Part shown: one piece after another, positions 7,194-47,117 of the stretch | Numbering within the stretch: position 1 is the first letter of the stretch | Layout of the letters: each line of letters begins with the position of its first letter | Origin: an uncultured Alphaproteobacteria bacterium | GTDB lineage: Bacteria > Pseudomonadota > Alphaproteobacteria > HIMB59 > GCA-002718135 | Direction: 5' to 3' | DNA length: 64,000 nucleotides | Assembly (NCBI GenBank): GCA_902521315.1 | Contig: CABYRH010000002.1 | Span: 20,076-84,075, forward strand | Translations under genes and position numbers: made by a program | Notes under the pieces: generated by a model | Told to the model about the DNA's origin: nothing | Databases searched by the model: none | Seen by the model: only the letters and a program-made list of their open reading frames with translations

Positions 7194-7201
7194 AATATTT
7201 T

Positions 7202-7239
7202 AAGAAGCTCTATTTAATAAGATAGAGCTTCTTTATTTT
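7202..7239. terminator. rho-independent terminator hairpin between convergent genes
   Basis: Perfect 12-bp inverted repeat AAGAAGCTCTAT (7202-7213) / ATAGAGCTTCTT (7222-7233) with an 8-nt loop, followed by TATTTTA on the + strand. It sits between the stop at 7193 and the minus-strand stop at 7233-7235. The U-tract is better for the + strand transcript. Confidence 0.7.
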
Positions 7240-7853: not shown

Positions 7854-7907
7854 GATTGACCCACCTTATTTAATATGATTAATGAAGTACAGTATTAATT
7901 AGTAATA

Positions 7908-10343: not shown

Positions 10344-10344
10344 T

Positions 10345-12044: not shown

Positions 12045-12067
12045 ATTAATTTATTACAATAAATAAA

Positions 12068-13696: not shown

Positions 13697-13742
13697 TATA
13701 TTTGTAAAATACTTATTTTAATTAAATTGACTCATTTTCATT

Positions 13743-14576: not shown

Positions 14577-14614
14577 ATATTTATTTTTTATAACTAGCCC
14601 CTTATAGAGTTCTT

Positions 14615-15307: not shown

Positions 15308-15790
15308 TTACTTATTTTTTTTTCTAAATAAATAAGGTTCTACAAAATCTCCAATCCATATTCCTCTTTTCTTCTGTTTTGCTTTTTCTTCTTCTTCAAC
15401 ATAATCTGTTGAATAATAGCGATAAGCTATCGCCCATCCATTCAGAACCATTTCACTATTTAAATCTAAATTATCTTTGTAGCAGATTCCAATAAATCTA
15501 TTATATCGATCCTTACCTTGTGTTATGCATTCGATCTTATTATTACCAATTAATTCCTTTAAGAACTTTGTTGATTCCACACCACAATTCCAGACTCTAC
15601 CATTTTTATTACATGTTTGATTTATTTCAGGAGCATCAATAGCATGCAGTCTTATTTTATTTTTATTAATATGTATAGTATCACCATCGATTACATTTGC
15701 ATTTCCAAATATAGTTTTACCAGATAATACTGTGCTAAGAGTAATTAAGATAAGAAATAAATTAAATGTTAAGATTTTTACTACCATCAA
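15308..15790 (-). CDS. secreted thermonuclease (staphylococcal nuclease, SNase-like) homologue
   Basis: 160 aa with a signal peptide. SNase motifs DGDTIHI...IRLHAIDAPE...Q.C...W.CG and GWAIAYRYYS...KRGIW. Its start overlaps the 3' end of soxG by 26-29 nt. Confidence 0.75.
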   Translation of the reverse strand: MMVVKILTFNLFLILITLSTVLSGKTIFGNANVIDGDTIHINKNKIRLHAIDAPEINQTCNKNGRVWNCGVESTKFLKELIGNNKIECITQGKDRYNRFIGICYKDNLDLNSEMVLNGWAIAYRYYSTDYVEEEEKAKQKKRGIWIGDFVEPYLFRKKNK

Positions 15791-16337
15791 CTAATAAATC
15801 ATAAACATATTTTGCATGTGATCTGTTTAAATGTAAATCTAGTGAAGTCTTTTCTTTGTCAGTATTATTTCTGATAAAAAGTATTGGAATTTTTATAAAT
15901 ACTGTTTGAGCTACAGAAAAATTAGTTTCCAAAATTTTTTCTAAGTTGGCTACAAGAAATTTAGAAAGTAAAATAAATACCTTTTCACCTTCAATCCGTA
16001 AAACAGTTTTATTAAATGAAATATCAGTTATTGCTGTTTTTTTTGGATTGAGTTTAGATTCTAATAGGGAAATAATTTCATCTTTCTCATTTTCTGGTGT
16101 TTCGACTAACCATTCATTAGGACCAAGCCACATAATACTTATATTATTATTAAAAATTCTTACATTTGGCTCAATTGGTAAAACCAGGTTTAATACTGAG
16201 CCTATATTTTTCATAAATTCTTTATCTGAACTTTTACCTCGTATGTTTATTTTACCTGTTAGAGCTCTTTCTTCTATTGTTACTCCATTATAATTTTTTT
16301 TATTTATATTCAAAACATTACTGTAAGTTAAACTCAT
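15762..16337 (-). CDS. soxG: sarcosine oxidase gamma subunit
   Basis: 191 aa in the last position of a soxB-D-A-G order. 4-nt ATGA overlap with soxA. Size and position fit SoxG, but the sequence itself is weakly diagnostic. Confidence 0.75.
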   Translation of the reverse strand: MSLTYSNVLNINKKNYNGVTIEERALTGKINIRGKSSDKEFMKNIGSVLNLVLPIEPNVRIFNNNISIMWLGPNEWLVETPENEKDEIISLLESKLNPKKTAITDISFNKTVLRIEGEKVFILLSKFLVANLEKILETNFSVAQTVFIKIPILFIRNNTDKEKTSLDLHLNRSHAKYVYDLLVDGSKNLNI

Positions 16338-19324
16338 TGATTAACCCTTTGATTCTCAGGATCAATAAATATTGGACTAGTTATTTCTACTTCAATATTT
16401 TCATTTTCCATTGGAGCAATTAAAACACTTCCTTTTTTTTCAAGACCACCTTTAATTAAAGCTAAAGCAAAAGAACTTTTTAAATTAGGTGAATAGTAAC
16501 TAGAAGTCACGTGACCAACCATTTTCATAGGTAGAGCAGTTATTTCTTCAACCAATTGAGATCCTTCTTCAAGAACTTTGTTTGGATCTTTAGTTTTTAA
16601 TCCTACCAATTGTTTTCTATCTTTTTTAATTGTATCACTTCTGTATAATGCCCTTTTACCAATAAAATCATATTTCTTCTTACTAACGATCCAGTCCATA
16701 TCCAGATCTATTGGTGTCACTGATCCATCTGTTTCTTGACCGACAATGATAAATCCTTTTTCAGCACGAAGTACATGCATCGCTTCAGTTCCATATGGAG
16801 TAATATTAAATTCTTTACCTTTATCTATACAAAGTTCCCAAAGATTTTTAGCATAGCCAGATGGAACATTTATTTCATAACACATTTCCCCAGTAAAACT
16901 TATACGCATGACTCTACATTTTATTCCGTTAATATTAATATTCTTAAAACTCATATGAGGAAAATTTTCTTTTGAAAAATCAAAATCTTGAACTAGTTTT
17001 TGCATTAATTTTTTTGAATTTGGGCCATTTAAGCTTATCGTTCCATAGTTTTCTGTTACTGATGTTAAATATACTTCTAATTCTGGCCATTCTGTTTGTA
17101 ACCAATCTTCTAATTTTGACATTACTGACGCTGCGTTTCCTGTAGTTGTTGACATAAGATAATGATACTCGTCTAATCTAGTTGTTACACCATCATCAAT
17201 GACCATCCCATCGTCGCCTAACATTACACCATATCGACATTTTCCAATTTCTAATTTTGACCATGAATTTGTGTAAACTCTATTTAAAAATTCACTTACA
17301 TCTCTACCCTTAATATCTATTTTACCAAGAGTTGATGCATCTAATATTCCTAGACTATCTCTAGTTGCTTTTACCTCTCTATTTAAAGCAGATTGAAAAC
17401 TTTCATTCTTTTGAGGATAATACCAGGCTCTTTTCCATTGGCCTACGTCCTCAAATAAAGCTTTATTATCAATATGCCATTGATGCATTGGGCTTGTTCT
17501 CTCTAAATCAAAAAATTCTTTAACATGACGTCCAGCAATTGCTCCAAATGTCACTGGCTTATAAGGTAAACGAAATGTTGTCGTACCTAATTCAGAGATT
17601 TCAGTATTTGTTAACTCTGATATTATTCCAAGTGCATTAACATTACTGGTCTTACCTTGATCAGTTGCCATTCCTGTAGTTGTATAACGTTTGACATGCT
17701 CAATTGATTGAAAACCCTCTTTTAAAGCTAATTTAATATCTTTTGCTGTTACATCGTTTTGGAAATCTACAAACATTTTTGTTCGTGAGATATTTTTCTT
17801 CGATGTAATCCAAACATTTTCGTGTTTGCCGTGTTTTAGATCATCTGATTTGTAGTTTACTTCGCTAAGTTCATTTTGCTGATTATCATTTAAATATTTA
17901 TATGTATCTTCTTGAGTTTTTAATAATATTTCATTTAAATTATAATTACCATTGCAACTTCCAACACACAATGTATCTTGATAAACTTCATTAGGAATAA
18001 AACTTCCATCTACATCTCTAAATTTAAGTTTTCCTTTTGATTGAGTAAATAAATGAACAGTAGGAGTCCAACCACCAGCAATTGCTAAAAGATCGCATTT
18101 AATATTAATAGAAGATTTTTCATTCTTGTTTTCAGTTTTTATTTTTCTTAATTTAACTTCTCTAATTTTTAATCTTCCAACAGTATCACTAATTTCATAA
18201 CCTCTTAGTATAGTAAAACCTAATTTATTTGCTTTTTTTGGGTAATATCCATCACTACTATCTCTTGTATCGACAATAGCCTCTACTTTTATACCTTGTT
18301 CAAAAAAATCTATTGCAGTTTCATAGGCACTATCATTGTTTGTAAAAAAAACTAAATTTTTTCCAGGTGCAACTCCATACTTATTTAAGTATTTTTTTGC
18401 ACTGTTAGAAAGCATAATTCCAGGCCTGTCATTATTGTTAAATATTATTGGTCGTTCAATTGCGCCAGTTGCTAAAATAACTTTCTTTGATCTAATTTTC
18501 CAAATTCTTTCTTTAATATCATTTTTTTTATTTAAACCTTTTTCTGGATCAATTTCTTGCACTGCTAGTAATAAATTATAATTCAAGTAAGCAAAACAAG
18601 TTGTGTTTTTAACTATTTTTACATTTGAATTTTTAGAAAGTTTATCAACTAATTTATTTTTCCATTCATTAATCGGTAAATTATCAATTTTAATGTCTTG
18701 ATTTTTTGTAGATAAAATTTCACCACCGAGATCCTCTTCTTGCTCAACTAGTAAAACTTTATAATTTTTATTCGCTGCAATTTCTGCTGAAATTAATCCA
18801 CTCACTCCTGCTCCAACAATTAGAACATCACAATGATAATGAAAATGTTCGTATTTGTGGGGATCATCTTTTTTTGGAGATTTACCAAGTCCTGCAGCGT
18901 GTCTTATAAAAAATTCATATGCTTTCCAAAACTTTGGCGGCCACATAAAGGTCTTGTAATAAAACCCTGCAGGAAAAAATGGGGATAGTAAATCATTTAT
19001 AGCGCCAGCATCAAATTTCACTGACGGCCAATTATTTTGACTATAAGCTTTTAACCCATCATATATCTGGACTTCAGTTACTCTTCTATTAGGTTCGGTA
19101 TATTCTTTGGTCTCAAGCTGAACTATTCCATTAGGTTCTTCACTACCTGCGGTATAAATACCCCGCGGTCTATGATATTTAAAACTTCTTCCAACTAAAT
19201 GAACATCATTTGCAAGAAGTGCAGAAGCTAGGGTGTCACCTTCAAATCCAAAATATTCTTTATTATCAAAATAGAACCTAACAGACTTATTATTTTCTAG
19301 ATTTTTATTATTTTTGTATCGCAT
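16334..19324 (-). CDS. soxA: sarcosine oxidase alpha subunit
   Basis: 996 aa. Has an N-terminal 2Fe-2S-like/SoxA region, the NAD(FAD) Rossmann motif DVLIVGAGVSGL, and a C-terminal GcvT-type folate-binding domain. Confidence 0.9.
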   Translation of the reverse strand: MRYKNNKNLENNKSVRFYFDNKEYFGFEGDTLASALLANDVHLVGRSFKYHRPRGIYTAGSEEPNGIVQLETKEYTEPNRRVTEVQIYDGLKAYSQNNWPSVKFDAGAINDLLSPFFPAGFYYKTFMWPPKFWKAYEFFIRHAAGLGKSPKKDDPHKYEHFHYHCDVLIVGAGVSGLISAEIAANKNYKVLLVEQEEDLGGEILSTKNQDIKIDNLPINEWKNKLVDKLSKNSNVKIVKNTTCFAYLNYNLLLAVQEIDPEKGLNKKNDIKERIWKIRSKKVILATGAIERPIIFNNNDRPGIMLSNSAKKYLNKYGVAPGKNLVFFTNNDSAYETAIDFFEQGIKVEAIVDTRDSSDGYYPKKANKLGFTILRGYEISDTVGRLKIREVKLRKIKTENKNEKSSINIKCDLLAIAGGWTPTVHLFTQSKGKLKFRDVDGSFIPNEVYQDTLCVGSCNGNYNLNEILLKTQEDTYKYLNDNQQNELSEVNYKSDDLKHGKHENVWITSKKNISRTKMFVDFQNDVTAKDIKLALKEGFQSIEHVKRYTTTGMATDQGKTSNVNALGIISELTNTEISELGTTTFRLPYKPVTFGAIAGRHVKEFFDLERTSPMHQWHIDNKALFEDVGQWKRAWYYPQKNESFQSALNREVKATRDSLGILDASTLGKIDIKGRDVSEFLNRVYTNSWSKLEIGKCRYGVMLGDDGMVIDDGVTTRLDEYHYLMSTTTGNAASVMSKLEDWLQTEWPELEVYLTSVTENYGTISLNGPNSKKLMQKLVQDFDFSKENFPHMSFKNININGIKCRVMRISFTGEMCYEINVPSGYAKNLWELCIDKGKEFNITPYGTEAMHVLRAEKGFIIVGQETDGSVTPIDLDMDWIVSKKKYDFIGKRALYRSDTIKKDRKQLVGLKTKDPNKVLEEGSQLVEEITALPMKMVGHVTSSYYSPNLKSSFALALIKGGLEKKGSVLIAPMENENIEVEITSPIFIDPENQRVNQ

Positions 19325-19332
19325 CTTTATTT

Positions 19333-19689
19333 TTAAAACCTATCTTTCTTCGATGTTGATAAATTCCCTGATCCAATACTTGGCTCACCTGAAGGAGTAG
19401 CTGGAATATTTGCTTTTAATATGGGAGGAGCTTCCCCCATTTTATATACTGCAAGAATTTCATCGGTTGCTGTATTTCTTGCTAAATTAAACCATTGTCT
19501 ACATCCATATTCATGGTTCCATCTTTCATAATGAATACCTTTTTCATTCTTTCGTAAGAATAAATATTCTGCCCATTGATCATCAGAGAGTTCAGGAGGA
19601 TTTTTTGGTCTTGCAATATGCGCTTCACCTCCACAAGAAAATTCAGCTTGATCTCTTTCTCCACAGTATGGGCAATTTATTAAAAACAT
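19333..19689 (-). CDS. soxD: sarcosine oxidase delta subunit
   Basis: 118 aa. N-terminal zinc motif CPYCGERDQAEFSCGGEAH typical of SoxD. Located between soxB and soxA. Confidence 0.88.
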   Translation of the reverse strand: MFLINCPYCGERDQAEFSCGGEAHIARPKNPPELSDDQWAEYLFLRKNEKGIHYERWNHEYGCRQWFNLARNTATDEILAVYKMGEAPPILKANIPATPSGEPSIGSGNLSTSKKDRF

Positions 19690-19692
19690 GAT

Positions 19693-20952
19693 TTAATGTG
19701 CTACGGCAGCTGCACCATGTTCATCAACTAATTCACCACTAGAAAATCTATTTATTGTAAAAGGAGCATTTAATTCATGTGCTTGATCATTAGCTATAGT
19801 GTGAGCAAATACCCAACCTGAACCTGGTGTTGCTTTAAAACCACCAGTTCCCCAACCACAATTAAAATATAATCCATTTATGTGCGTCTTACTGATAATA
19901 GGGCTTGCATCAGGACAAATATCTACAATTCCTCCCCAATGACGAAGCATTTTCATTCTAGAAAATATTGGAAACAATTCAACTATTGCCATTAATGTAT
20001 CTTCAACAATGTTAAAGCCACCTCTTTGAGTATATGAAGTGTATCCATCTGTTCCAGCACCAATAACTAGTTCTCCCTTATCTGACTGAGATACATACGC
20101 ATGAATTGTATTGGACATTACTACAGTATCAATGACTGGTTTTACTGGTTCTGAAACTAGTGCTTGTAATGGTTTACTCTCCAAAGGTAATTTGATACCC
20201 GCCATATTGGCAATAACACTGGTATGCCCTGCAGCAGCTATTCCAATTTTATTTGAATTAATGGTTCCTTTTGTTGTTTCAATACCAGTTACATTTCCAT
20301 TTTTTACATTAATACCAGTTACTTCACAATTTTGAATTATATCAACTCCCATTTCATCAGCTCCTCTTGCATAACCCCATGCAACAGCATCATGTCTTGC
20401 AGTTCCTGCTCTTCTTTGCAGCGTTGCTCCTAAAACAGGGTATCTAATGTTTGGTGAAGTATTTATTATTGGACAAAATTCTTTAACTTTCTTTGTATCA
20501 AGCCATTCACAATCAATATCATTTAGTCTGTTTGCATGCCATCGTCTTTTTAATTCTCTTACATCATGAAGATTATGAGCAACATTCAAAACCCCTCTTT
20601 GAGAAAACATTACGTTGTAATTTAATTCTTGAGACATACCTTCCCAAAGTTTTAATGCATGCTCGTATAAAGCTGCACTTTGATCCCATAAATAATTTGA
20701 TCTAATTATAGTGGTATTTCGTCCTGTATTCCCACCGCCTATCCAACCTTTTTCAATTACTGCAATATTATTAACTCCATGGTTTTTTGCTAGATAGTAA
20801 GCAGTAGTTAAACCGTGTCCACCACCACCGACAATTATTGCATCATAACTTTTTTTTGGCTCAGGACTATTCCACGTCTTTTGCCAATTCTCATGATGAT
20901 TTAAAGCATTTCTAGCAATAGATAGAAATGAGTATTTATTTTTATTAAACAT
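19693..20952 (-). CDS. soxB: sarcosine oxidase beta subunit
   Basis: 419 aa. FAD motif [19 protein letters not shown] and covalent-FMN histidine region [15 protein letters not shown]. Confidence 0.92.
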
Positions 20953-20972
20953 TATAACTCTTTATAGCAGTT

Positions 20973-22646
20973 TTAAAAAAGACCTTCAATTTCTCCATGG
21001 TCATTTAGCTTTATCGAATTTGCCGCAGGAACACTTGGTAGACCCGGCATGGTCATAATATCTCCGCAAACAACCACTATAAATTCTGCTCCTGATGACA
21101 ATCTTACCTCTCTAATAGGTAAAACGTGGCCAGTAGGAGCACCTTTTAAATTAGGGTCAGTTGAAAAACTATATTGAGTCTTTGCAATGCAAACAGGTAA
21201 TTTGCCAAATCCTTTAGTTTCAAAATCCTTCAATTGTTGACGTACTTTCGTGTCTGCCACAACTTCACTTGCGTGATAAATCTCTTGTGCAATTTTTTCT
21301 ATTTTTTTGAATAGAGTTAAGTCATCTTCATATAAAAATTTAAATGTATTCTTATTATCTTCACAAATATCTATTACATTTTGAGCTAATTCAGTTGCAC
21401 CGTCACCACCATCGGACCAGTGAGTACACATAGAAGCCTTGACTCCTTGAGTTGTACAAAAATTTAGAACGGCATCAACTTCAGCTTTAGAATCAGTGAC
21501 AAAATGATTAATAGCAACAGTTACTGGTAATCCAAATTTTCTAATGTTATTAATATGTCTTTCTAGATTTACTAAACCTTTTTTAAGAGCATTAACATTT
21601 TCATTTTTTAAATCTTCTTTTGAAACATCTCCATGCATTTTTAGTGCTCTAATTGTAGCTACCAAAACCACACAATCAGGTTTTAAATTTGATTTTCTAC
21701 ATTTTATATCAAGGAATTTTTCTGCTCCTAGATCAGCTCCAAAACCTGCTTCAGTTACAACGTAATCACTTAATTTTAAACTAGCTTTAGTTGCAATTAC
21801 AGAATTGCAACCATGAGCAATATTTGCAAATGGCCCACCATGAATTATAGCAGGATTATTTTCTAACGTTTGTGTTATGTTGGGCCTAATGGCATCTTTT
21901 AATAATACTGTCATTGGACCTTCTGCCTTTAAATCTTTTGCATAAATAGATTTTTTGTCTCGTGTATAAGCAATAGTTATATTTCCAATTCTCTCTTCAA
22001 GATCTTTTAAATCTTTTGCTAAGCAGAAAATTGCCATTATTTCCGATGCAACAGTAATATCAAAACCATCTTGTCTAGGATATCCATTTGCAACTCCTCC
22101 TAAATCAACAACAATAGATCTAAGTGATCTATCATTCATATCCATTACTCTCTTCCAAACAACCCTTCTAACATCAATATTTAATTTATTTCCCCAGTAG
22201 ATATGATTATCAATCAATGCAGAAAGTAAATTATGAGCGGATGTAATTGCATGAAAATCTCCAGTAAAATGTAAATTAATTTGCTCCATTGGTACTACTT
22301 GAGCATAGCCTCCACCAGCTGCACCACCTTTCATACCGAATGATGGTCCAAGACTCGGCTCTCTTAAACAAACTATTGATTTCTTTCCTAGCTTATTAAG
22401 ACCATCACTTAATCCAACTGAAGTTGTTGTTTTACCTTCTCCTGCTGGTGTTGGAGTTATTGCTGAGACTAGAACAAGTTTACCATCTTTATTTTTATTA
22501 AGTGACTCTATATACTCCAAGTTTATTTTTGCTATATGACGACCCATAGGACTGAAGGCTTCAGGTGTGTCTGGTACATCAAGCCCTTTTAGAATTTCAC
22601 TAATAGGCTTCATTTTAGCTTTTCTTGCTATTTCAATATCTGACAT
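20973..22646 (-). CDS. fhs: formate-tetrahydrofolate ligase
   Basis: 557 aa. [16 protein letters not shown]-loop and overall FTHFS pattern ([14 protein letters not shown]). GGAG lies 4 nt upstream of the ATG. Confidence 0.95.
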
Positions 22647-22739: not shown

Positions 22740-23633
22740 CTAATTTAACTCGAATTTCTGTTTATTATTATAAGAAAAATCTGAGTTATTAAATTGATTT
22801 AACCACTCTGATGTTTTTTTCATACCACCAAACGCATAGAAGTGTATTTTTTCAAGTTTAGAGTCTTTGTTTATTTCGCTATGTTCAGCAAGATCATAAA
22901 TTAATTTGTCAGGAGTGCTCAATGTTGCAAGTTTAGTTAAGTTAAAAGCCTGTTTTGTAATAAATCTTAAAGAATTTCCAATACCGCAAGACCTTGCATA
23001 ATTAACTAATGTTTTAATAGAGGCAGGACCTGGTATCCCAGCGTGGATTGGTAATTTATTTCCAATTTTTTCTAAATGTTTTTCCCAGTCGATTAAAGAT
23101 TTAGCTTCAAAAAAAAATTGTGTTGCTAAATACATTTTAAAATCAACATTTTTTGCAAAATCATTCTTCTGTTTAATTGCTAAATCTAAATTTTCATTTG
23201 AAATATCTGGGCTTCCTTCGGGATGTCCAGCCACACCTACAAATTGATAATTATATTTTGAAAGAAAATCTGTTTTTAAAACATCAATTGAGGAAGAGAT
23301 TTCGCCAGCTTGATTTCCACCACCACCAATAATTAACATTTTTGAACACCCAGATTCATTTGCAAGTTCGCCAATATATTTTTCTAAGTCATTTTTATTT
23401 ACAATAGTTCTCGCAGGTAAATGAGGTATAACATCATAACCTTCTATTTTTAATTTTTTTGCCGTTCTAATAACATTTTTTGAATTTTCATCTGGTAAAT
23501 AAGTTATATAAACGTCATGATTTTTATTAAGAAATTCAGAAAAGCCTCCATATTTTTCGTAAACATTTGGAGTTGTTTCTATAGAATAACTATTGAGAAA
23601 ATTTTTAACAATATTAATGGTTTCTTTAGACAT
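22740..23633 (-). CDS. metF: methylenetetrahydrofolate reductase-like protein (divergent MetF family)
   Basis: 297 aa. The architecture aligns by eye with MTHFR: YSIETTP vs FSFEFFPP, VYITYLP vs VSVTYGA, IPHLPARTI vs APHLTCIDA, MLIIGGG vs IVALRGD. The canonical motifs are degenerate. Confidence 0.65.
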   Translation of the reverse strand: MSKETINIVKNFLNSYSIETTPNVYEKYGGFSEFLNKNHDVYITYLPDENSKNVIRTAKKLKIEGYDVIPHLPARTIVNKNDLEKYIGELANESGCSKMLIIGGGGNQAGEISSSIDVLKTDFLSKYNYQFVGVAGHPEGSPDISNENLDLAIKQKNDFAKNVDFKMYLATQFFFEAKSLIDWEKHLEKIGNKLPIHAGIPGPASIKTLVNYARSCGIGNSLRFITKQAFNLTKLATLSTPDKLIYDLAEHSEINKDSKLEKIHFYAFGGMKKTSEWLNQFNNSDFSYNNKQKFELN

Positions 23634-24886: not shown

Positions 24887-26308
24887 ATGGTAGCCACTTA
24901 TGGAATTCATTGGTTCAGACAAGATTTGCGATTACAAGAAAATCCATCTTTATTATCACTTTCAAAAAAAGTTAATCAGATAATTCCAATTTATATTTTA
25001 GATTTAAATCAAAGAATTGGATCTACATCCAAATGGTGGTTAGAAAAATCCTTAATTAGTTTATATGACTCAATACAAAAACAAAATGGCAAACTAAATA
25101 TATTTGCTGGTGATCCAGAGAAAATTATATCTTCAATACTAAAGAATTCAAATGTTAAATATGTATCCTGGAATAGACTATATGATCCATATTCAATTAA
25201 AAGAGATACTAAAATTAAATCTATAGTTACCTCATCTAAAATAGAATGCGACTCTCACAATGGATATCTTTTAAATGAACCTTGGAATATTAAAAATAAA
25301 AGTGGAACCTTTTTTAAAGTATTTACCCCTTACTGGCGACATTGTGATGAGCTACTAAAACTAAAAGATATTAAATTTAAAAATACAAAAATAAGCTACG
25401 CCAATTCAAAATTTAAAAATGAAATAACTATACAAGATTTAAATCTAACAAACAAAAAAGAGCAATGGATCAAAAAAATTGAAAAATATTGGATACCTGG
25501 TGAAAGTAATGCAAAATTACAATTAAAAAAATATATTTCGCAAAAAGCAAATAACTATTCAGTTGGAAGAGATAGACCCGATAAAGATTTAACTTCAAAA
25601 TTATCACCTTATCTTCATTTTGGAGAAATTTCTGCTTTAGAAGTTTATAATACCGTAAATATTGAAAAAAAAATTGATCCTGAAAATAAAAAAAAATTTC
25701 TTGCTGAACTTGGCTGGAGAGATTTTTCTTATAATCTTTTATTTCATTATCCAGATATGACTCATAAACCTATACAAAGTAAATTTAATAAATTTCCATG
25801 GATTAAAAATGCTAAAAATTTATCATTATGGCATAATGGTAAAACTGGTATTCCAATTGTTGATGCTGGAATGAGACAACTATATAAAACAGGCTGGATG
25901 CATAATAGAGTAAGAATGATTGTAGGCTCGTTTTTAACAAAAAATTTATTGTTACACTGGAAAAATGGAGAAGAGTGGTTTTTTGATACTTTAGTTGATG
26001 CTGACGTTGGGTCTAATTCTGCAGGTTGGCAATGGATCTCTGGTTGTGGTGCTGATGCAAGTCCATATTTTAGAATTTTTAATCCAATATTGCAGGGTCA
26101 AAAATTTGATCCAGATGGTGATTATGTAAAAGAATTTGTTCCTGAGTTGAATAATATTCCAAAAAAATATATTCATAATCCTTGGGAGATGTCTATGGAG
26201 GATCAAAAGAAATATAATTTTGAGATTGGTACTTCATATCCAACACCAATTGTAGATTTAAAAGAAACAAGAAATAGAGCACTATCAGCGTTTAAAACTA
26301 TTAGTTGA
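24887..26308 (+). CDS. phrB: deoxyribodipyrimidine (CPD) photolyase
   Basis: 473 aa. WFRQDLRL start, WRDF, TGIPIVDAGMRQLYKTGWMHNRVRMIV, and DADVGSNSAGWQWISG FAD-binding signature. Confidence 0.92.
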   Translation: MVATYGIHWFRQDLRLQENPSLLSLSKKVNQIIPIYILDLNQRIGSTSKWWLEKSLISLYDSIQKQNGKLNIFAGDPEKIISSILKNSNVKYVSWNRLYDPYSIKRDTKIKSIVTSSKIECDSHNGYLLNEPWNIKNKSGTFFKVFTPYWRHCDELLKLKDIKFKNTKISYANSKFKNEITIQDLNLTNKKEQWIKKIEKYWIPGESNAKLQLKKYISQKANNYSVGRDRPDKDLTSKLSPYLHFGEISALEVYNTVNIEKKIDPENKKKFLAELGWRDFSYNLLFHYPDMTHKPIQSKFNKFPWIKNAKNLSLWHNGKTGIPIVDAGMRQLYKTGWMHNRVRMIVGSFLTKNLLLHWKNGEEWFFDTLVDADVGSNSAGWQWISGCGADASPYFRIFNPILQGQKFDPDGDYVKEFVPELNNIPKKYIHNPWEMSMEDQKKYNFEIGTSYPTPIVDLKETRNRALSAFKTIS

Positions 26309-37978: not shown

Positions 37979-38728
37979 ATGGCAGGGCACTCGAAATTTA
38001 AAAATATTATGCATCGTAAAGGTGCTCAAGATAAAAAAAGAGCAAAAGTCTTCTCAAGACTTGGAAGAGAAATTTCTGTTGCTGTCAAAGTTGGAGGTGA
38101 AGATATTGAAAGTAATATCAGATTAAGATCTGCAATTGCTTCAGCCAAGTCTCTAAATATGCCAAAAGATAATATTGAAAGAGCAATTAAAAAAGGCCAA
38201 GGGAATGACCCTGATAGTAATTATGAAGAAGTAAGATATGAGGGGTATGGTCCTGAAGGTATTGCAATAATAGTTGAGGCACTTACAAATAATAAAAATA
38301 GAACGGCTGCAGAGATTAGGTCTTCTTTTAGTAAATATGGAGGTAATTTGGGTGAAACAGGAAGCGTTAGTTTTGGTTTTGACAGATTTGGAAATATAAC
38401 TCTTGATAAAAACTTAGTAAAAGAAGATCAACTTCTAGAATTTCTAATTGAAAATAATAGTGAAGATTATGAAATTAATAATACAGAATATTCAATATAC
38501 TGTGATCAAAATGATTTGCATGAACTTAATGATAAATTAATTAAACAGTATGGTCAGACTAACTCTGCAAATTTAATCTGGAAAAGTAAAAACAATATAA
38601 ATATTGGAAAAGATACAGCAGACAAACTATTTAAATTACTTGAAGTTTTAGAAGACAATGACGACGTTCAAGTTGTATCATCAAATTTTGAAGTTGATGA
38701 TAATGTTCTATCTTCACTCACAGCCTAA
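37979..38728 (+). CDS. yebC: YebC/PmpR family DNA-binding regulator
   Basis: 249 aa. MAGHSKFKNIMHRKGAQDKKRAKVFSRLGREI and YEGYGPEGIAIIVEALTNNKNRTAAEIR are near-consensus. Confidence 0.95.
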   Translation: MAGHSKFKNIMHRKGAQDKKRAKVFSRLGREISVAVKVGGEDIESNIRLRSAIASAKSLNMPKDNIERAIKKGQGNDPDSNYEEVRYEGYGPEGIAIIVEALTNNKNRTAAEIRSSFSKYGGNLGETGSVSFGFDRFGNITLDKNLVKEDQLLEFLIENNSEDYEINNTEYSIYCDQNDLHELNDKLIKQYGQTNSANLIWKSKNNINIGKDTADKLFKLLEVLEDNDDVQVVSSNFEVDDNVLSSLTA

Positions 38729-38742
38729 TGAAAGGAATATAG

Positions 38743-39036
38743 ATGCCTGATAAAGCTTGGAAAAAAAGAGAAAGAGATGTTGCAAATTATTTTAATGGGA
38801 AAAGGACACCTTTGAGCGGAGGTAATGGTAAAGTTACAAGAGCTGATGTAATTCATGAAGATCTTTTTATAGAATGTAAATTAAGAGCAAAGCATACAGC
38901 AATTAGTTTATGGGATGATACTGCAAAGCTTGCCAAAGAAGAGGGCAAGACGCCAGTAATAGCATTATGTGAAAAAAATAGACCAGGTTTTTGGGTTATG
39001 GTTCATAGTAGTGATCTTGAAAAAATTAAAAAATAA
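38743..39036 (+). CDS. small PD-(D/E)xK nuclease-fold protein, Hjc-like putative Holliday junction resolvase
   Basis: 97 aa. E10 (KKRERDV), D35 (RADVIH) and E44-x-K46 (FIECK), then a hydrophobic strand TPVIALC...GFWVMV. The spacing and context resemble archaeal Hjc. It sits 14 nt after yebC and 5 nt before tolQ, with AAAGGAA upstream of the ATG. Confidence 0.55.
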   Translation: MPDKAWKKRERDVANYFNGKRTPLSGGNGKVTRADVIHEDLFIECKLRAKHTAISLWDDTAKLAKEEGKTPVIALCEKNRPGFWVMVHSSDLEKIKK

Positions 39037-39041
39037 TTATT

Positions 39042-39755
39042 ATGGCAGATATTAATAGTACAAATTTATCAACTGAAGCCCCAGATTTTTCAATGCTTGC
39101 TTTATTCATGCAAGCTGACCTTGTTGTCAAATCCGTAATTATAATTTTAATTTTAGCCTCTCTTTATTCTTGGAATGTAATAATTTCAAAAATTTTAAGA
39201 ATTAGACAATTAAAAAAACTTGAAAAAGAATTTGAAGATATTTTTTGGTCTGGAAATTCTTTTGAAGATTTATACGAAACTTTAAACTTTAACCAGACAG
39301 ATCCAAAATCAAAATTATTTTGTGCTGCAATTTTGGAGTGGAAAAAAAGTAAAACTCTGTTTGAAAACGATACATCTGATATTAACTCTTTAAAAGATAG
39401 AATGATGAGATCAATGACAGTTGTTTTTAATAAAGAAAGTGAAAATGTTGAAAGAAATTTAACATTCCTGGCAACTGCTGGATCAACTGCACCTTTTATT
39501 GGGTTATTTGGAACAGTCTGGGGTATAATGAATAGTTTTAAATCTATTGCAATAGCTCAAAATACAAATTTAGCAGTAGTCGCACCAGGAATTGCAGAAG
39601 CCCTTTTTGCGACTGCATTAGGCCTATTTGTTGCGATTCCTGCTGTAGTCGCATACAATAAAATTTCAAACGACTTGTCAAAATATTTCATATCCTTGGA
39701 AACATTCATGGATGAATTCTCAACAATTTTTTTTAGACAATTAGAGAAAAAATAA
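39042..39755 (+). CDS. tolQ: Tol-Pal system protein TolQ
   Basis: 237 aa. MotA/TolQ/ExbB pattern: LATAGSTAPFIGLFGTVWGIMNSF and GIAEALFATALGLFVAIPAV. Confidence 0.93.
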   Translation: MADINSTNLSTEAPDFSMLALFMQADLVVKSVIIILILASLYSWNVIISKILRIRQLKKLEKEFEDIFWSGNSFEDLYETLNFNQTDPKSKLFCAAILEWKKSKTLFENDTSDINSLKDRMMRSMTVVFNKESENVERNLTFLATAGSTAPFIGLFGTVWGIMNSFKSIAIAQNTNLAVVAPGIAEALFATALGLFVAIPAVVAYNKISNDLSKYFISLETFMDEFSTIFFRQLEKK

Positions 39756-39756
39756 A

Positions 39757-40185
39757 TTGATTACATCAAATAATTTAAACAAACGAAAGAAGGAAAGGTA
39801 TACTCAAATGAGTGAAATTAATGTTACACCTTTTGTAGATGTTATGCTTGTTTTGCTAATTGTTTTTATGGTTACCGCACCTCTTCTAACGGTTGGAATT
39901 AAAGTTGATTTACCAAAGGTTAAAGCTACTGCATTAACTGATATTAAAGATCCAATTGAGATAACTGTTAAATTAGACGGAGAAGTCTACATTGGAGAAT
40001 CAAAAGTTGAAGTAGAAAATTTGATTCCTCGACTAAACGCTATTACTGAACAAAATACTGAAGCAAGAATCTACATAAGAGGTGATAGAGTAGTAGCTTA
40101 TGGGAGGATTATGGAAATTATGTCAATAATCAATTCAGCGGGATATATAAAAGTTGCATTAATTACTCAAAATCTTGAGCAATAG
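39757..40185 (+). CDS. tolR: Tol-Pal system protein TolR
   Basis: 142 aa. SEINVTPFVDVMLVLLIVFMVTAP (ExbD/TolR TM) preceded by a basic tail. Start is a TTG 1 nt after the tolQ stop, with an alternative ATG at 39808. Confidence 0.9.
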   Translation: MITSNNLNKRKKERYTQMSEINVTPFVDVMLVLLIVFMVTAPLLTVGIKVDLPKVKATALTDIKDPIEITVKLDGEVYIGESKVEVENLIPRLNAITEQNTEARIYIRGDRVVAYGRIMEIMSIINSAGYIKVALITQNLEQ

Positions 40186-41262
40186 ATGGATCGTATAAGC
40201 TTTAATAGTTTAAAAATAGTAAATTTTTTTGAAAACTTAAATCCTAAAGCATCTGGTGTTATATTTTCAACACTAATACATTTAATTATCCTTTTGTTTA
40301 TGGTGGGCTTGCCAAATTTTTTTTCTCCAAAAGAAATCTATGTTCCAAATGTAATACCTATTGAGATACTTAATGTTGATAAAAATACAAATTTGAAAAA
40401 ATCTGATACTGAAAAACCAGAAAATAAAAATAAGGAAACAATTACTAAGCAAAAAAAATTCAATTCATCAGATCAATTAGAAGTAAAAAAAAATGTTGAA
40501 ATAAATAAAATTAAAATTGAAGAAAAAACTAATCCAAATCAACCAGTATTGGAAATGAAACAAACTTCAAATTTAGAAGTTAAGCAAACAAAAAAAGTAG
40601 TTATCAAAGAAAAGGAAATTTTAGAGGTTAAGAGAAAAGTAGAAACAATTAATACTGATATTATTAAACCTAAGCTCAAACCAAAACCAAAGCCAAAAAT
40701 AATAAATAATGAAAATGTTAAATCAGATTTAGATGTTGAAACAAATATAAAGGATAAACCAAAGCTAGATAATGATATGACTATATCTAAACCAAAGCCA
40801 AAACCCGAAAAAGATTTTAGTATAGCATCAATGCTTAAAGATTTAAGAAATGAAAAAACAAATATGGTTCAAAATGAGGTTAAAGAAGAGGTTGCAGAGG
40901 TTGATAATAAAAGCAAAGATGATACCGATGAAAATATTATTTTATCAATATCTGAAATAGACTTGTTAAGGCAGCAACTATCTTCTTGTTGGAATGCCCC
41001 AGCAGGCGCAGTCATAGAAAGAGGAGATAAAGTAACAATTTCAGCAAAAATATTACAAAACATGAAGGTTTCACCAAATAGTATCCGCATTGTTGACACA
41101 AATATAGCTAAAACTAATCCGTTTTATGGACCGATTACAGATAGCGCAATGAGAACTCTATTAAACCCAGAATGCACACCTTTAAAACTTCCAAAAGATA
41201 AATATAATCTATGGAAAAATCTTACAATTACTTTTGATTATAGTATTATGAAGGGATATTAA
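40186..41262 (+). CDS. tolA: Tol-Pal system protein TolA
   Basis: 358 aa. One N-terminal TM helix, then a long K/E/N-rich domain II with KPK repeats (about 40666-40698 and 40789-40812), then a C-terminal domain with SSCWN.P motif. Position is between tolR and tolB. Confidence 0.8.
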   Translation: MDRISFNSLKIVNFFENLNPKASGVIFSTLIHLIILLFMVGLPNFFSPKEIYVPNVIPIEILNVDKNTNLKKSDTEKPENKNKETITKQKKFNSSDQLEVKKNVEINKIKIEEKTNPNQPVLEMKQTSNLEVKQTKKVVIKEKEILEVKRKVETINTDIIKPKLKPKPKPKIINNENVKSDLDVETNIKDKPKLDNDMTISKPKPKPEKDFSIASMLKDLRNEKTNMVQNEVKEEVAEVDNKSKDDTDENIILSISEIDLLRQQLSSCWNAPAGAVIERGDKVTISAKILQNMKVSPNSIRIVDTNIAKTNPFYGPITDSAMRTLLNPECTPLKLPKDKYNLWKNLTITFDYSIMKGY

Positions 41263-42578
41263 TGAAAAAAGTTTTTTTAATAACCCTTTTTTTATTTTCC
41301 AGTTTTAAAGTTCATTCTTTGGAAGTGACTCTAACACAGGGTAGTGTGAAACCAACTCCTATTGCTGTAACAGAATTATATTCAAAAAATTCGCAACTAA
41401 CAAAAATAGGTAAAAATATTTCAATTGTAATTTCTGATAACTTAGAAAGATCTGGTCTATTTTTACCAATTGATAAAAGATCATTTATCCAAGATAATGA
41501 ATCATTAGCTAACAAACCAAGATTTGAAGATTGGAAATTAATAAAGGCTCAACATTTAGTTTCTGGAAAAATTTCAACAAACAACGGAAAAATATCTGTA
41601 GAGTTTAGATTGTTTGATGTTTTTCAACAAAAACAAATTGTGGGAAAAAAATATGAGACCAATGAAAAAAATTGGAGAAGAGTTGCACATATTATTTCAG
41701 ATTCCATTTTTAAAAATATAACTGGTGAGGGTGGTTACTTTGATACAAGAATAGTTTACGTTGCTGAGACTGGTCCAAAAGAAAATAAACAAAAAAGATT
41801 AGCAATAATGGACCAAGATCAATCAAATCATCGTTTTTTAACAGATGGATCATACCTAGTATTAACACCAAGGTTTTCTCCTAACTCTCAAAAAATTACT
41901 TACATGTCTTATGTAAATAGAAATAATCCTAGAGTTTACATATTTGATATAGAAACTGGTAAACAAGAAATAGTTGGTGAGTTTCCAGGAATGACATTTG
42001 CGCCACGTTTTTCACCTGATGGTAATCAAATCGTCATGTCTTACACTGATCCAGAAATTGGTAATTCTGAAATTTACATTCTTGATTTAAAAACAAGAAT
42101 ATCAAAAAGAGTTACTAATAATTCCTCAATTGATGTTTCTGCGAGTTTTTCACCTGATGGAAAAAAAATAGTTTTTAATTCAGATAGAAGTGGCAGAAGG
42201 CATTTGTATGTATCTGATAATAATGGAAAAAATATCAAGAGAATTAGCAGGGAAGCGGGAAGTTACTACACACCAGTCTGGTCTCCAAGAGGTGATATGA
42301 TAGCATTCACTAAACAAGAGGGAGGGCAATTTTATATTGGTGTTATGGAGGTTGATGGTTCTAATGAAAGAATGATTGCAAAATCATTCCATGTTGAGGG
42401 GCCTACATGGGCTCCAAATGGTAGATTTTTGATGTACTTTAAAGAAGAAAGAACTGCCGAGGACGGCTCAGGAGGTGAATCTAGTCTATATTCTATTGAT
42501 TTAACTGGATTTAATGAGAGAAAAGTAATAACTCCTTTAGGTGGATCTGACCCAGCTTGGTCCCCCTTGATGCATTAA
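41262..42578 (+). CDS. tolB: Tol-Pal system beta-propeller protein TolB
   Basis: 438 aa with a signal peptide. Repeated propeller blades (PRFSPNSQKITYMS, PRFSPDGNQIVMS, ASFSPDGKKIVFNSDRSG, PVWSPRGDMIAF, PTWAPNGRFL, PAWSP). Confidence 0.93.
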   Translation: MKKVFLITLFLFSSFKVHSLEVTLTQGSVKPTPIAVTELYSKNSQLTKIGKNISIVISDNLERSGLFLPIDKRSFIQDNESLANKPRFEDWKLIKAQHLVSGKISTNNGKISVEFRLFDVFQQKQIVGKKYETNEKNWRRVAHIISDSIFKNITGEGGYFDTRIVYVAETGPKENKQKRLAIMDQDQSNHRFLTDGSYLVLTPRFSPNSQKITYMSYVNRNNPRVYIFDIETGKQEIVGEFPGMTFAPRFSPDGNQIVMSYTDPEIGNSEIYILDLKTRISKRVTNNSSIDVSASFSPDGKKIVFNSDRSGRRHLYVSDNNGKNIKRISREAGSYYTPVWSPRGDMIAFTKQEGGQFYIGVMEVDGSNERMIAKSFHVEGPTWAPNGRFLMYFKEERTAEDGSGGESSLYSIDLTGFNERKVITPLGGSDPAWSPLMH

Positions 42579-42679: not shown

Positions 42680-43201
42680 ATGTTTTACAAGTTTTTTATC
42701 TCTATATTCATGGTTTTATTTGTTGCCGCTTGTGCAACAACTCCAAAAGACTCGGCTGACTCTTCAGGCTCAGGATCAAGTAGTTCTGGGAGTGATGTTT
42801 CCTCAGAAGGAACCATTACTGAAACTACAGGAAGTGGAATAGTTTCTGGTTCACAGGAAGATTTAATAGTAAACGTTGGTGATAGAGTATTTTTTGGATA
42901 CGACAGTTCAGATTTAGACTCAGACGCTTTAGAATTACTTCAAGATCAAGTTGCATGGCTGAAGCAAAATAGCGATGTATCTGTTACTATTGAAGGACAT
43001 TGTGATGAAAGAGGAACAAGAGAGTACAACTTGGCTCTTGGTGAAAAAAGAGCACAAGCAGTTAAAAATTACCTAATTGGATTAGGAATAAATCCAGATA
43101 GAGTTTCAACTATTAGTTATGGAAAAGAAAGACCAGCTGTTGTTGGATCTAACGATGGAGCATGGGCTCAAAATAGACGATCAGTAACTATAGTTAATTA
43201 A
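42680..43201 (+). CDS. pal: peptidoglycan-associated lipoprotein Pal
   Basis: 173 aa. Lipobox VAAC, a Ser/Gly-rich linker, and an OmpA-like domain (VFFGYDSSDL, IEGHCDERGTREYNLALGEKRA, NRRSV). Confidence 0.92.
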   Translation: MFYKFFISIFMVLFVAACATTPKDSADSSGSGSSSSGSDVSSEGTITETTGSGIVSGSQEDLIVNVGDRVFFGYDSSDLDSDALELLQDQVAWLKQNSDVSVTIEGHCDERGTREYNLALGEKRAQAVKNYLIGLGINPDRVSTISYGKERPAVVGSNDGAWAQNRRSVTIVN

Positions 43202-43220: not shown

Positions 43221-43251
43221 TGGCGCTATAGAAATATAGCGCCATATTTTT
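43221..43251 (+). terminator. rho-independent terminator after pal
   Basis: Perfect 10-bp stem TGGCGCTATA (43221-43230) / TATAGCGCCA (43235-43244) with a GAAA loop, followed by TATTTTTA. Confidence 0.8.
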
Positions 43252-45164: not shown

Positions 45165-45215
45165 TTTTCTACAAAACTATTGTGTTTTTATAATAAATTC
45201 CTATGTATTAATAAG

Positions 45216-47117
45216 ATGAAAAACATCAGTAAAAACGTTGTATTATGGATTATAATTGGATTGCTCTTAATTGTGCTTTTCAATCTTTTTCAAGGAACTT
45301 CTAACAATAGAAATACTTCAAAAATATCCTTTTCTGACTTCATTGCTGCAACAGAAAGTGGGAATGTTTCTGAAGTTAATATCAATGGAAGCAACGTTAC
45401 AGGATTTCTAAATGACGGTCGATCATTTAGCACATATGTGCCTAACTACCCCAATTTGGTAGATAAATTAAATGAAAGTGGAGTGAAAATTACGGCTGAG
45501 CCATCTGAGAGATCAATGCACCCTCTACTAAGTGTATTACTGTCTTGGTTTCCAATGCTTCTATTAATTGGAGTTTGGATTTTTTTTATGCGTCAGATGC
45601 AAGGTGGCGGTGGAAAAGCAATGGGCTTTGGTAAATCTAAAGCTAAATTATTAAACGAGGCTGTAGGTAAAGTCACATTTGATGACGTAGCAGGTATTGA
45701 TGAAGCTAAACAAGAATTAGAGGAAGTTGTTGAATTTTTAAAAGACCCTTCAAAGTTTTCCAGATTGGGAGGTAAGATTCCAAGAGGCGCACTTCTAGTA
45801 GGTCCCCCAGGTACAGGAAAAACATTACTTGCAAGAGCAATAGCAGGTGAAGCAAACGTTCCTTTCTTTTCTATTTCAGGATCAGATTTTGTTGAAATGT
45901 TCGTGGGCGTTGGAGCTAGTAGAGTTAGAGATATGTTTGACCAAGGTAAAAAAAATGCACCTTGTATAGTTTTTATTGATGAAATCGATGCTGTCGGAAG
46001 GCATCGTGGTGCTGGTCTTGGTGGTGGTAATGACGAAAGGGAACAAACTCTTAATCAACTTCTTGTTGAGATGGATGGGTTTGAAGCAAATGCAGGTGTA
46101 ATAATTATTGCTGCAACAAATAGACCCGATGTTCTTGATCCAGCTTTACTCAGACCAGGAAGATTTGACCGTCAAATAACAGTAAATAATCCCGATGTAA
46201 TGGGAAGAGACAAAATACTTAAAGTTCATATTAAGAAAATTAAAGTTTCACCAAAATTTGACTCAAAAATTATTGCAAGGGGAACACCAGGTTTTTCTGG
46301 GGCTGATTTAGCAAACCTAGTTAATGAAGCAGCACTATTAGCTGCTAGAAAAAATAAAAGAATGGTTACACTTGAAGATTTTGAAAGTGCTAAAGATAAA
46401 GTAATGATGGGTGCTGAAAAAAGATCTATGGTCATGTCAGAAGATGAAAAGAAACTTACTGCTTATCATGAAGCTGGTCATGCAGTAGCAACTCTTCATT
46501 CACCAGCCTCTGATCCAATACACAAAGCAACTATAATACCGAGAGGTAGAGCTTTAGGTATGGTTATGAGACTTCCTGAAAAAGATCAGCTGTCCATGAG
46601 AAAAGATCAAATGAAAGCGCATTTATTAATAGCTACTGGGGGAAGAATTGCCGAAGAAATGATCTTTGGTAAAGATAAAATTACAAATGGTGCAGCAAGC
46701 GATATACAAATGGTAACAAATCTATCAAAAAAAATGATTACTGAATGGGGTATGAGTGAAAAATTAGGTCGTTTAAGATATAACAGTGATAGTGAGGAGG
46801 TTTTCCTTGGGCATTCTGTTGCACAATCAAAAAATTTATCTGACTCTACAGCAAAATTAATTGATGATGAGGTTAGATCTCTTGCAGAAGAGGCTGAAAA
46901 TAATTGTAGAAAAATTCTTCAAGATAATATTGAAGAACTGCATATAGTTGCTAAAGGGTTATTAGAGTATGAAACATTATCAGGTGATGAAATTAAAGAT
47001 TTAATCAAAGGTATAAAGCCAACTCGTGATGATTTTGATAATGACATAAACACACCAAAAAAAACAGCCACATCTGTCCCAAAAACAGGTGGATCTGCCG
47101 CGGCATCGGCAAACTAA
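45216..47117 (+). CDS. ftsH: ATP-dependent zinc metalloprotease FtsH
   Basis: Walker [14 protein letters not shown], Walker [33 protein letters not shown], and zinc site HEAGHA. The track ORF starts at a TTG (45180). The ATG at 45216 ([11 protein letters not shown]) is the likely start. Confidence 0.95.

Follow-up and report, generated by a model that had tools for sequence, protein, structure and literature searches.

A phage-type Hjc-like nuclease gene in the ruvCAB slot of low-GC marine alphaproteobacteria: a candidate Holliday-junction resolvase

Introduction

Recombinational repair and chromosome segregation are both held to depend on the resolution of Holliday junctions, for which RuvABC is regarded as the principal system in bacteria. 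Which enzyme, then, would cut junctions in a bacterium where another gene sits in the place of ruvC, ruvA and ruvB? The question is raised by a 64-kb stretch of DNA from an uncultured Alphaproteobacteria bacterium (64,000 nucleotides; contig CABYRH010000002.1, positions 20,076 to 84,075), which we call the window throughout. Between yebC and tolQ, the window carries an open reading frame (ORF) for 97 amino acids that a previous inspection of the letters alone (the sequence-only reading) had taken for an Hjc-like nuclease of the PD-(D/E)xK type, occupying the slot of the ruvCAB genes and perhaps displacing RuvC. Here, we follow up that proposal with homology and profile searches, structure prediction, and an analysis of gene order and selection. 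As an Hjc-like protein, the ORF product has good support from sequence profiles and partial support from structure; its chromosomal gene is a core gene; and its service as the cell's junction resolvase is, in our judgement, somewhat probable.

The positional argument for a ruvCAB slot is sound. In many other bacteria, ruvC-ruvA-ruvB(-ybgC) occupies this place behind yebC; about half of the species that have RuvC keep its gene in one operon with yebC, and among the genomic associates of RuvABC, YbgC/Tol-Pal rank next (PMC3403352). Table S1 of that study, which places the yebC of HTCC1062 at 578863..579588, with columns for YebC, RuvC, RecU, RuvA and RuvB, scores Ca. Pelagibacter ubique HTCC1062, Pelagibacter sp. 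HTCC7211 and HIMB114 as positive for YebC and negative for RuvC, RecU, RuvA and RuvB (PMC3403352). Since these cultured SAR11 bacteria are scored as lacking both RuvABC and RecU, loss of the resolvasome in streamlined marine alphaproteobacteria has published precedent. In the literature that we searched, no paper discussed the missing RuvABC and RecU of SAR11 or proposed a substitute.

Results

The ORF belongs to a large family with an invariant Hjc-like active site

The ORF runs from an ATG at 38743 to 39036 on the plus strand (all features given below are on this strand), as read directly from the window sequence. The TAA stop of yebC ends at 38728, leaving a gap of 14 nt, and the stop codon of the ORF occupies 39034–39036, 5 nt ahead of the tolQ ATG at 39042. 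These coordinates agree exactly with the tight packing described in the sequence-only reading. A search of a 5.8-billion-protein collection returned 376 close homologues, and an exhaustive profile search gathered 1,029 family clusters at 50% identity (E ≤ 1e-3). Because it has so many homologues, and because dN/dS (the ratio of nonsynonymous to synonymous substitution rates) is low at related chromosomal loci, this is no chance ORF.

Among the PHROGs families, phrog_2002, annotated as 'Holliday junction resolvase', matches the ORF with E = 2.5e-10, residues 3–94 aligning with profile positions 16–112 of 130. To describe the family we used an alignment of 92 diverse representatives that are 38–71% identical to the ORF; phrog_2002 matches 88 of them. 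Other models match fewer: phrog_244, whose label 'RusA-like' is no proof of a RusA fold, matches 31 of the 92, and PF24608 (PDDEXK_15, 'Phage putative PDDEXK endonuclease') is a weak but recurrent match in 15, with a best E-value of 2e-4. Hjc (PF01870, E = 0.028) and UPF0102/YraN give one weak match each among the 92 members. Against the Pfam family hidden Markov model of PF01870 itself, the ORF gives no match, and the single member that touches it does so below the gathering threshold.

Exactly six residues are invariant in all 92 representatives: E10, R21, S25, D35, E44 and K46. The sequence-only reading had named E10, D35, E44 and K46 as putative catalytic residues, and they lie at the positions it gave. 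In the window, the codon of E10, the motif I glutamate on helix 1, lies at 38770–38772; the codons of R21-T-P-L-S25, which form the R-x-x-L-S-G loop, at 38803–38817; that of the motif II aspartate D35 at 38845–38847; and those of the motif III E-x-K, E44-C45-K46, at 38872–38880 (E44 at 38872–38874, K46 at 38878–38880).

We then compared the family with archaeal Hjc and Hje, using an Hjc/Hje alignment rebuilt from the PDB sequences 1gef, 2wcz, 1ob8 and 4tkd. Profile–profile alignment with hhalign pairs the 92-sequence family profile with Hjc/Hje over residues 7–80 at a probability of 85–87% (E ~4–6e-6). The score of 36.8 compares with 11.3 ± 2.2 (maximum 18.0) for 100 column-shuffled Hjc alignments and with 10.6 for a reversed control. 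The residues that pair, ORF first, are E10–E9, R11–R10, R21–R25, S25–S29, D35–D33, E44–E46 and K46–K48, so that no invariant residue in the active-site region of Hjc is left unpaired. Searched against PDB sequences, the family profile found nothing at E ≤ 10. Komori et al. are said to have reported in 2000 that E9, R25, D33, E46 and K48 are essential in Hjc of P. furiosus. Taken with the phrog_2002 matches and the recurrent PDDEXK_15 hits, the profile–profile result upholds the proposed Hjc-like PD-(D/E)xK identity of the ORF product, which is well supported by these sequence profiles and only partly by predicted structure.

Two further observations concern the family at large. Several members (P0123, P0129, P0137, P0140, P0141, P0142, P0152, P0155 and others) are 160–180 amino acids long and are matched by the profile in two stretches; in these, the C-terminal half (helix 2, strands 4–5) appears to have been duplicated or inserted internally, after the catalytic N-terminal half. 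The labels given in source databases to the cluster members examined (P0456 and P0382) are inconsistent: one IMG record reads 'Holliday junction resolvase', another, in a phage-containing cluster, 'transposase', and the rest 'hypothetical protein'.

Predicted structures

Two AlphaFold models of the ORF product were obtained. The first, from a shallow alignment, has a predicted local distance difference test score (pLDDT) of 71.5 and the order alpha-beta-beta-alpha-beta-beta-alpha. A helix at residues 2–16 bears E10, and adjacent strands at 33–37 and 41–47 bear D35 and the pair E44 and K46, respectively. Its top fold matches in the PDB, at template modelling (TM) scores of ~0.5, are Hjc (1gef, 2wcw, 2wiw and 2eo0) and the archaeal splicing endonuclease EndA. 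The second model, from a deep alignment, reaches a pLDDT of 91.6 and places the elements at the same positions, with short strands. Its matches include predicted structures of phage proteins, with a top TM score of 0.81; one that is named 'Holliday junction resolvase' scores 0.64.

The chromosomal copy holds a fixed position and is under purifying selection

A scan of one genome per species returned 125 relatives, and the synteny counts use the best 80 of these. They come from marine Alphaproteobacteria, as genomes assembled from single cells or metagenomes, 'HIMB59-LRMED-199' and 'MarineAlpha5_Bin5' among them. The order YmdB-YebC-ORF-TolQ(-TolR-TolB) was found in 80 of 80 loci wherever the contig reaches, with small, near-identical gaps. 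MarineAlpha5_Bin12 has the same order, with an ORF that is 72% identical to that of the window and overlaps tolQ. So does locus L172, from an abundant lineage that has diverged very far: its ORF, 74% identical, overlaps yebC, and its YebC and TolQ are 55% and 49% identical to those of the window. A further 80 loci came from a separate scan of metagenomes, for which distant members of the family served as seeds. The same order recurs in 17 of them (YebC 53–75% identical to that of the window, GC content 26–32%); 25 of the other 63 carry phage markers and 38 are unclassified. The annotated chromosomal loci showed neither phage genes nor an integrase nor repeats at their flanks.

With about 100 yebC|tolQ loci in hand, the idea that the ORF is retained at one locus in related genomes stands. 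What has to be amended is the description of these relatives as SAR11: the nearest named genomes are HIMB59 and MarineAlpha5, which are not demonstrably true SAR11, and the HIMB59/AEGEAN-169 group, to which the window belongs, was once SAR11 subclade V and is today argued to stand apart (PMC10308909). One locus carries a different label altogether. L064 (NHJW02000023.1, 'Gammaproteobacteria bacterium TMED225') encodes YmdB-YebC-ORF-TolQ-TolR at 94–98% protein identity to the window, and its bin or label is probably wrong.

Selection on the chromosomal copy was assessed across 82 related chromosomal loci. Together with the window, they hold 81 distinct nucleotide sequences and no more than 29 variants of the protein; in pairwise comparison with the copy of the window, dN/dS is 0.01–0.12. 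The chromosomal ORF is thus under strong purifying selection. In all of the lineages compared (L078, L080, L085, L172 and L203–L249) it is also better conserved than YebC, and in most of them better than TolQ; against HIMB59-LRMED-199, for example, the ORF is 92% identical, YebC 75% and TolQ 82%. Such high conservation could reflect very strong constraint, or homogenisation by exchange with the phage gene pool. By vertical inheritance and purifying selection, the chromosomal copy is a core gene.

Relatives in phages and mobile elements

Most members of the wider family are genes of phages or mobile elements. The homologue in Pelagicoccus mobilis adjoins a family-A DNA polymerase (PolA) and an AAA_25 ATPase. 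On a 764-kb contig, a homologue follows AAA_24, DUF669, a DEAD helicase and a Prim-Pol primase; on another contig it lies amid NinB, ThyX, SSB, a helicase, a Toprim primase and Dam; and on a further one it stands beside an excisionase-like helix-turn-helix protein, a PolB exonuclease domain, PIF1 and a D5 primase. In Bacteroides phage BS162P1 (L002:5323-6315, WAX08862.1), the domain forms the C-terminal 92 residues of a 330-residue protein annotated 'I-HmuI', whose N-terminus consists of NUMOD4 and HNH_3, making it a fusion of two nucleases; the equivalents of E10, D35, E44 and K46 are kept there too.

Closer relatives come from IMG/VR, in which 140 viral contigs encode them. The best 80 are 71–83% identical to the ORF, on contigs many of which are 36–38 kb long, and neither yebC nor tol genes were found in these contigs. 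Median GC content is 39.6% in the viral loci versus 28.8% in the window, and that of the ORF itself is 33%. Close relatives occur in 35–38 kb marine podoviruses with a T7-like portal, a RepB primase and a DEAD helicase. In four of these, the copy is located between TerS and TerL (L095:3063-5705, L092:239-1938, L173:9063-11705 and L171:2151-4152); it overlaps the start region of TerL in the first three, and a 78-residue ORF intervenes in L171. An acetyltransferase gene follows shortly downstream of TerL in these podoviruses. The copies of L095 and L092 match phrog_2002 as well as the ORF does, and one cluster contains a protein of 'uncultured Mediterranean phage uvMED'. Together, the marine podovirus relatives, the phage replication–recombination modules and phrog_2002 membership strongly support a phage-type origin, one of the sources that the sequence-only reading had considered.

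How the host and phage copies are related was examined in a neighbour-joining tree of 112 distinct sequences over 89 columns. The marine podovirus copies are nearest to the chromosomal copies, which implies at least one transfer between marine podoviruses and this bacterial clade. The nodes are weak: a pure host clade of at least 40 sequences was recovered in 76 of 200 replicates, and monophyly of all host copies in 3 of 200. In an early tree, host and phage copies had appeared interleaved; that picture was abandoned when wider sampling clustered most host copies, with weak support. Since phages carry the overwhelming share of the wider family, the simplest ultimate origin would be a passage from phage to host. 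Given the weakly supported nodes, we claim no direction for the most recent exchange between phage and host.

The ruvCAB slot

Using RuvA, RuvB and RuvC of E. coli (NC_000913) as tblastn queries, we found no homologue of any of the three in the whole 64-kb window. The sequence-only reading had noted that ruvC, ruvA, ruvB and ybgC are missing between yebC and tolQ; the search agrees for the three ruv genes, and ybgC would not fit there. One RuvB match, at ~45.6 kb with E = 9e-4, was set aside as a weak AAA+ ATPase match in a 645-residue ORF (45180–47117), whose counterpart in the syntenic locus L085 is FtsH, an assignment that comes from synteny and not from a profile of its own. Related loci gave the same outcome, with no ruv genes within ±10 kb of the ORF in the best 80 of the 125 genome loci, and RuvA, RuvB and RuvC found at 0 of the 80 metagenome-scan loci. 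Non-orthologous displacement of RuvC by the ORF is plausible, though unproven, and the ORF product is probably the junction-cutting enzyme of the cell.

Neighbouring genes and wider content of the window

The neighbours of the ORF form a compact array. A YmdB-like phosphoesterase gene, recognised by Pfam, lies upstream of yebC (37979–38728), which encodes a protein of the TACO1/YebC family (PF20772 and PF01709, E = 1e-50; 42% identical to E. coli YebC). A Shine-Dalgarno-like AAGGA, read from the sequence, lies in the 14-nt gap at 38732–38736, 6 nt upstream of the start of the predicted nuclease gene (38743–39036), itself assigned by homology and profile comparison. Downstream follow tolQ (39042–39755; Pfam MotA_ExbB, E = 1e-35), tolR (39757–40185; Pfam ExbD), a lysine- and proline-rich tolA-like gene (40186–41262), tolB (41262–42578) and pal, for an OmpA-family lipoprotein (42680–43201). 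The tolA-like gene was assigned by position and translation, its syntenic counterpart in L085 having no Pfam match; it contains KPKPKPK repeats and is a very divergent TolA. The assignment of tolB comes from synteny with L085 (TolB_N, PD40) and tblastn across loci, and that of pal from synteny with an L085 gene matching PF00691 (OmpA).

A consensus scan, the only method used for terminators, found no terminator-like hairpin on the plus strand from yebC to the end of pal; the first strong one past yebC lies at 43221–43244. Because of this lack of an intervening hairpin, the array is consistent with a single yebC-ORF-tolQRAB-pal transcription unit.

Elsewhere in the window, Pfam profiles of 20 further large ORFs identify genes of one-carbon and glycine-betaine catabolism, a photolyase and housekeeping genes. 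The interval 5859–22646 holds a dense cluster of one-carbon and methylated-amine catabolism genes, among them two GCV_T-family proteins, one of them fused to a DAO oxidoreductase (dimethylglycine-dehydrogenase-like), ETF-QO, a 995-residue sarcosine-oxidase alpha-like protein with a DAO-type beta subunit, and a formate-tetrahydrofolate ligase. An MTHFR-like gene follows at 22740–23633 and a DNA photolyase gene (PF00875 and PF03441) at 24887–26308. Apart from the Hjc-like ORF, the photolyase is the only DNA-repair or recombination gene recognised among the profiled window ORFs.

Discussion

A proposed junction resolvase of phage type

What does the ORF product do in the cell? The reading that we favour, and hold to be somewhat more probable than its negation, is that it is a domesticated phage-type Hjc-like resolvase in the ruvCAB slot of low-GC marine alphaproteobacteria of the HIMB59/AEGEAN-169 type, where it serves as the junction resolvase. 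Under this proposal, the product would be a minimal, 97-residue, Mg2+-dependent and structure-specific DNA endonuclease of the Hjc-like branch of PD-(D/E)xK enzymes, encoded by a copy from the mainly phage-borne phrog_2002 family that became fixed in the chromosome inside the yebC-tolQRAB-pal operon. By analogy with Hjc, RecU and Hjc_15-6, it would bind four-way or otherwise branched DNA as a homodimer and introduce paired nicks through a metal site made of E10, D35 and E44 with K46, while R21 and S25 may contact the phosphate backbone. In the bacterium, it would resolve recombination intermediates and reversed forks; in the podoviruses, where the gene sits between TerS and TerL, it would debranch replicated DNA ahead of packaging. 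Our data show the homology to Hjc with its conserved active-site residues, the affiliation with phages, the fixed place in the chromosome and the strong purifying selection; dimer formation, junction specificity and the replacement of RuvC are inferred.

Several points weigh against this proposal. The scans for ruv genes covered the 64-kb window and the flanks of related loci, whereas displacement needs loss across the whole genome, and HIMB59 is absent from Table S1 of the survey that scores SAR11 as RuvABC-negative (PMC3403352). If RuvAB are missing too, a lone resolvase would need another branch-migration partner, such as RecG or RadA. As a single query, the ORF had no match in Pfam, NCBIfam or PDB sequences. 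The sequence-only reading had called for a structural check of the PD-(D/E)xK fold, and the answer is divided: the profiles and the first model speak for the fold, and the high-confidence second model has no match among solved structures at E < 0.9, with 1gef reaching a TM score of only 0.33–0.36 at a root-mean-square deviation of 13–15 Å. Structural support for the predicted fold is therefore that of the lower-confidence model together with the sequence profiles. One conjecture is that the second model may depict a swapped or open monomer form of an obligate dimer, which would explain its mismatch with 1gef. Phage relatives are often broad-specificity debranching nucleases, so strict specificity for Holliday junctions is not implied, and our searches found no biochemical data on any member of the family.

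A bolder version of the proposal holds that the HIMB59/AEGEAN-169 bacteria, and possibly true SAR11, have lost the whole of RuvABC, and that a phage-derived 97-residue Hjc-like enzyme, encoded at the same locus, acts as their sole resolvase without RuvAB, its gene still being exchanged with marine podoviruses that use it beside their terminase. This version would account for sustained recombination in lineages scored as RuvABC-negative. We put it forward tentatively, as a possibility with somewhat more against it than for it.

Alternative explanations

The strongest competitor is an accessory role: a domesticated phage junction nuclease comparable to RusA of DLP12, in a genome where ruvC and ruvAB have merely been relocated and nothing has been displaced. 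The reach of the ruv scan, 64 kb plus flanks of ±10 kb, leaves room for relocated genes, and ruvC lies apart from yebC in about half of RuvC-containing bacteria (PMC3403352). Set against this, the gene is fixed, has dN/dS of 0.01–0.12 and surpasses YebC always and TolQ mostly in conservation; a redundant accessory gene would seldom look like this where the genome is streamlined, and the streamlined SAR11 genomes are scored as having none of RuvA, RuvB, RuvC and RecU (PMC3403352). We regard an accessory role as unlikely, though deserving of serious thought.

Alternatively, the product could be a domesticated phage PD-(D/E)xK nuclease put to another use, whether defence or exclusion directed at branched phage intermediates or the processing of stalled forks or incoming DNA. 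Its closest relatives are indeed phage genes between terminase subunits, 71–83% identical to the host copies, and the BS162P1 fusion to a NUMOD4 and HNH homing-endonuclease module shows that the domain can be used as a generic cleavage module. The active-site pattern, however, agrees with that of dedicated junction resolvases, and unlike defence genes in variable islands, the ORF is a singleton in a housekeeping operon with a constant position across deep divergence. A search with the PADLOC defence models matched 0 families at E ≤ 1, and the defence-system version was rejected as unsupported by any of them. Some other role of this kind seems to us distinctly unlikely, more so than an accessory resolvase.

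The similarity of phage and host copies could also be the trace of ongoing transfer, the ORF being a selfish phage gene, recently inserted or repeatedly re-acquired, that has no function in the host. Two results lean this way, namely that the window ORF is more similar to phage copies (up to 83% identical) than to the chromosomal copies of sister lineages (72–74%), and that all host copies were monophyletic in just 3 of 200 replicates. Yet the insertion point is identical in ~100 loci over YebC divergence down to 53% identity, no phage genes, integrase or repeats were seen to flank the annotated loci, dN/dS within the chromosomal lineage is 0.01–0.12, and in GC content the ORF (33%) comes near the host (29%) rather than the phage loci (40%). 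Gene order and selection largely refute a selfish gene, which we rate as very improbable. Least credible of all is a non-nuclease, that is, a small DNA-binding or Tol-Pal-associated protein on a degenerate PD-(D/E)xK-like scaffold: apparent co-transcription with tolQRAB-pal, as judged by the consensus terminator scan, and the high-confidence model without a convincing PDB match would suit it, but all four canonical catalytic residues, and with them the Arg and Ser that Hjc also conserves, never vary among 92 members, which is unexpected for an inactivated scaffold, and the wider family is found in phage DNA-metabolism modules, not in envelope contexts.

Significance

In a sister group of very abundant ocean bacteria, the ORF provides a definite candidate for the missing resolvase, and one that is easy to test. 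If the resolvase proposal is true, this would be the second case, after RecU, of a bacterial PD-(D/E)xK resolvase replacing RuvC, here with a traceable phage origin. At 97 residues, the protein is also of an attractive size for biochemistry and structural work.

Comparison with known systems

Junction nucleases of the Hjc- and RecU-like PD-(D/E)xK type were known, as was phrog_2002, and the ORF product would add a member to these. What is new, as far as the searched literature shows, is that an abundant marine clade has such a gene domesticated and fixed in its ruvCAB slot. The ORF family is contained in phrog_2002, and PDDEXK_15 (PF24608) is its nearest Pfam model, the ORF itself falling below detection; both are computational families, for neither of which did we find a tested function.

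The closest counterparts are archaeal Hjc and Hje (PF01870; 1gef, 2wcz, 1ob8 and 4tkd), small single-domain PD-(D/E)xK enzymes whose E-R-S-D-ExK residues align one-to-one with those of the ORF family, whose secondary-structure order is that of the first model, and which include Hjc, one of the top fold matches of that model. They differ in length, with 123–143 residues compared with 97 in the ORF product, and in the loop from the S-G motif to the catalytic Asp, which is longer in the ORF family. Moreover, the ORF family is bacterial and phage-borne, not archaeal, and its high-confidence model is not superposable on these enzymes.

A phage enzyme of the Hjc type, Hjc_15-6 of Thermus phage Tth15-6 (7bgs/7bnx), has been demonstrated to cleave X-shaped DNA and has the motif E-SD-EVK (E10, D40, E53 and K55; PMC8805305). 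The ORF family has the comparable consensus E...SD...ExK (E10, D35, E44 and K46). Hjc_15-6 is ~150 residues long and has no direct sequence match to the ORF family, their relation being drawn by way of Hjc.

Phages also supply junction nucleases of other kinds. RusA, from the cryptic prophage DLP12 of E. coli, can substitute for RuvC when expressed, and T7 endonuclease I and T4 endonuclease VII clear branches before packaging. Such clearing fits the TerS-ORF-TerL placement in the marine podoviruses. In fold they stand apart: those of RusA and endonuclease VII are unrelated to the ORF family, and T7 endonuclease I is a PD-(D/E)xK enzyme but a domain-swapped dimer of ~149 residues.

RecU, found in Firmicutes and Mollicutes, is a PD-(D/E)xK enzyme related to Hjc. 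It is the functional analogue of RuvC in lineages without RuvC (PMC3403352), and it provides the precedent for a bacterial lineage with a cellular resolvase other than RuvC. With ~200 residues, RecU is encoded away from ruvAB and partners RuvAB; the 97-residue ORF product, encoded in the ruvCAB slot of bacteria in which RuvAB are possibly absent, differs from it in these respects.

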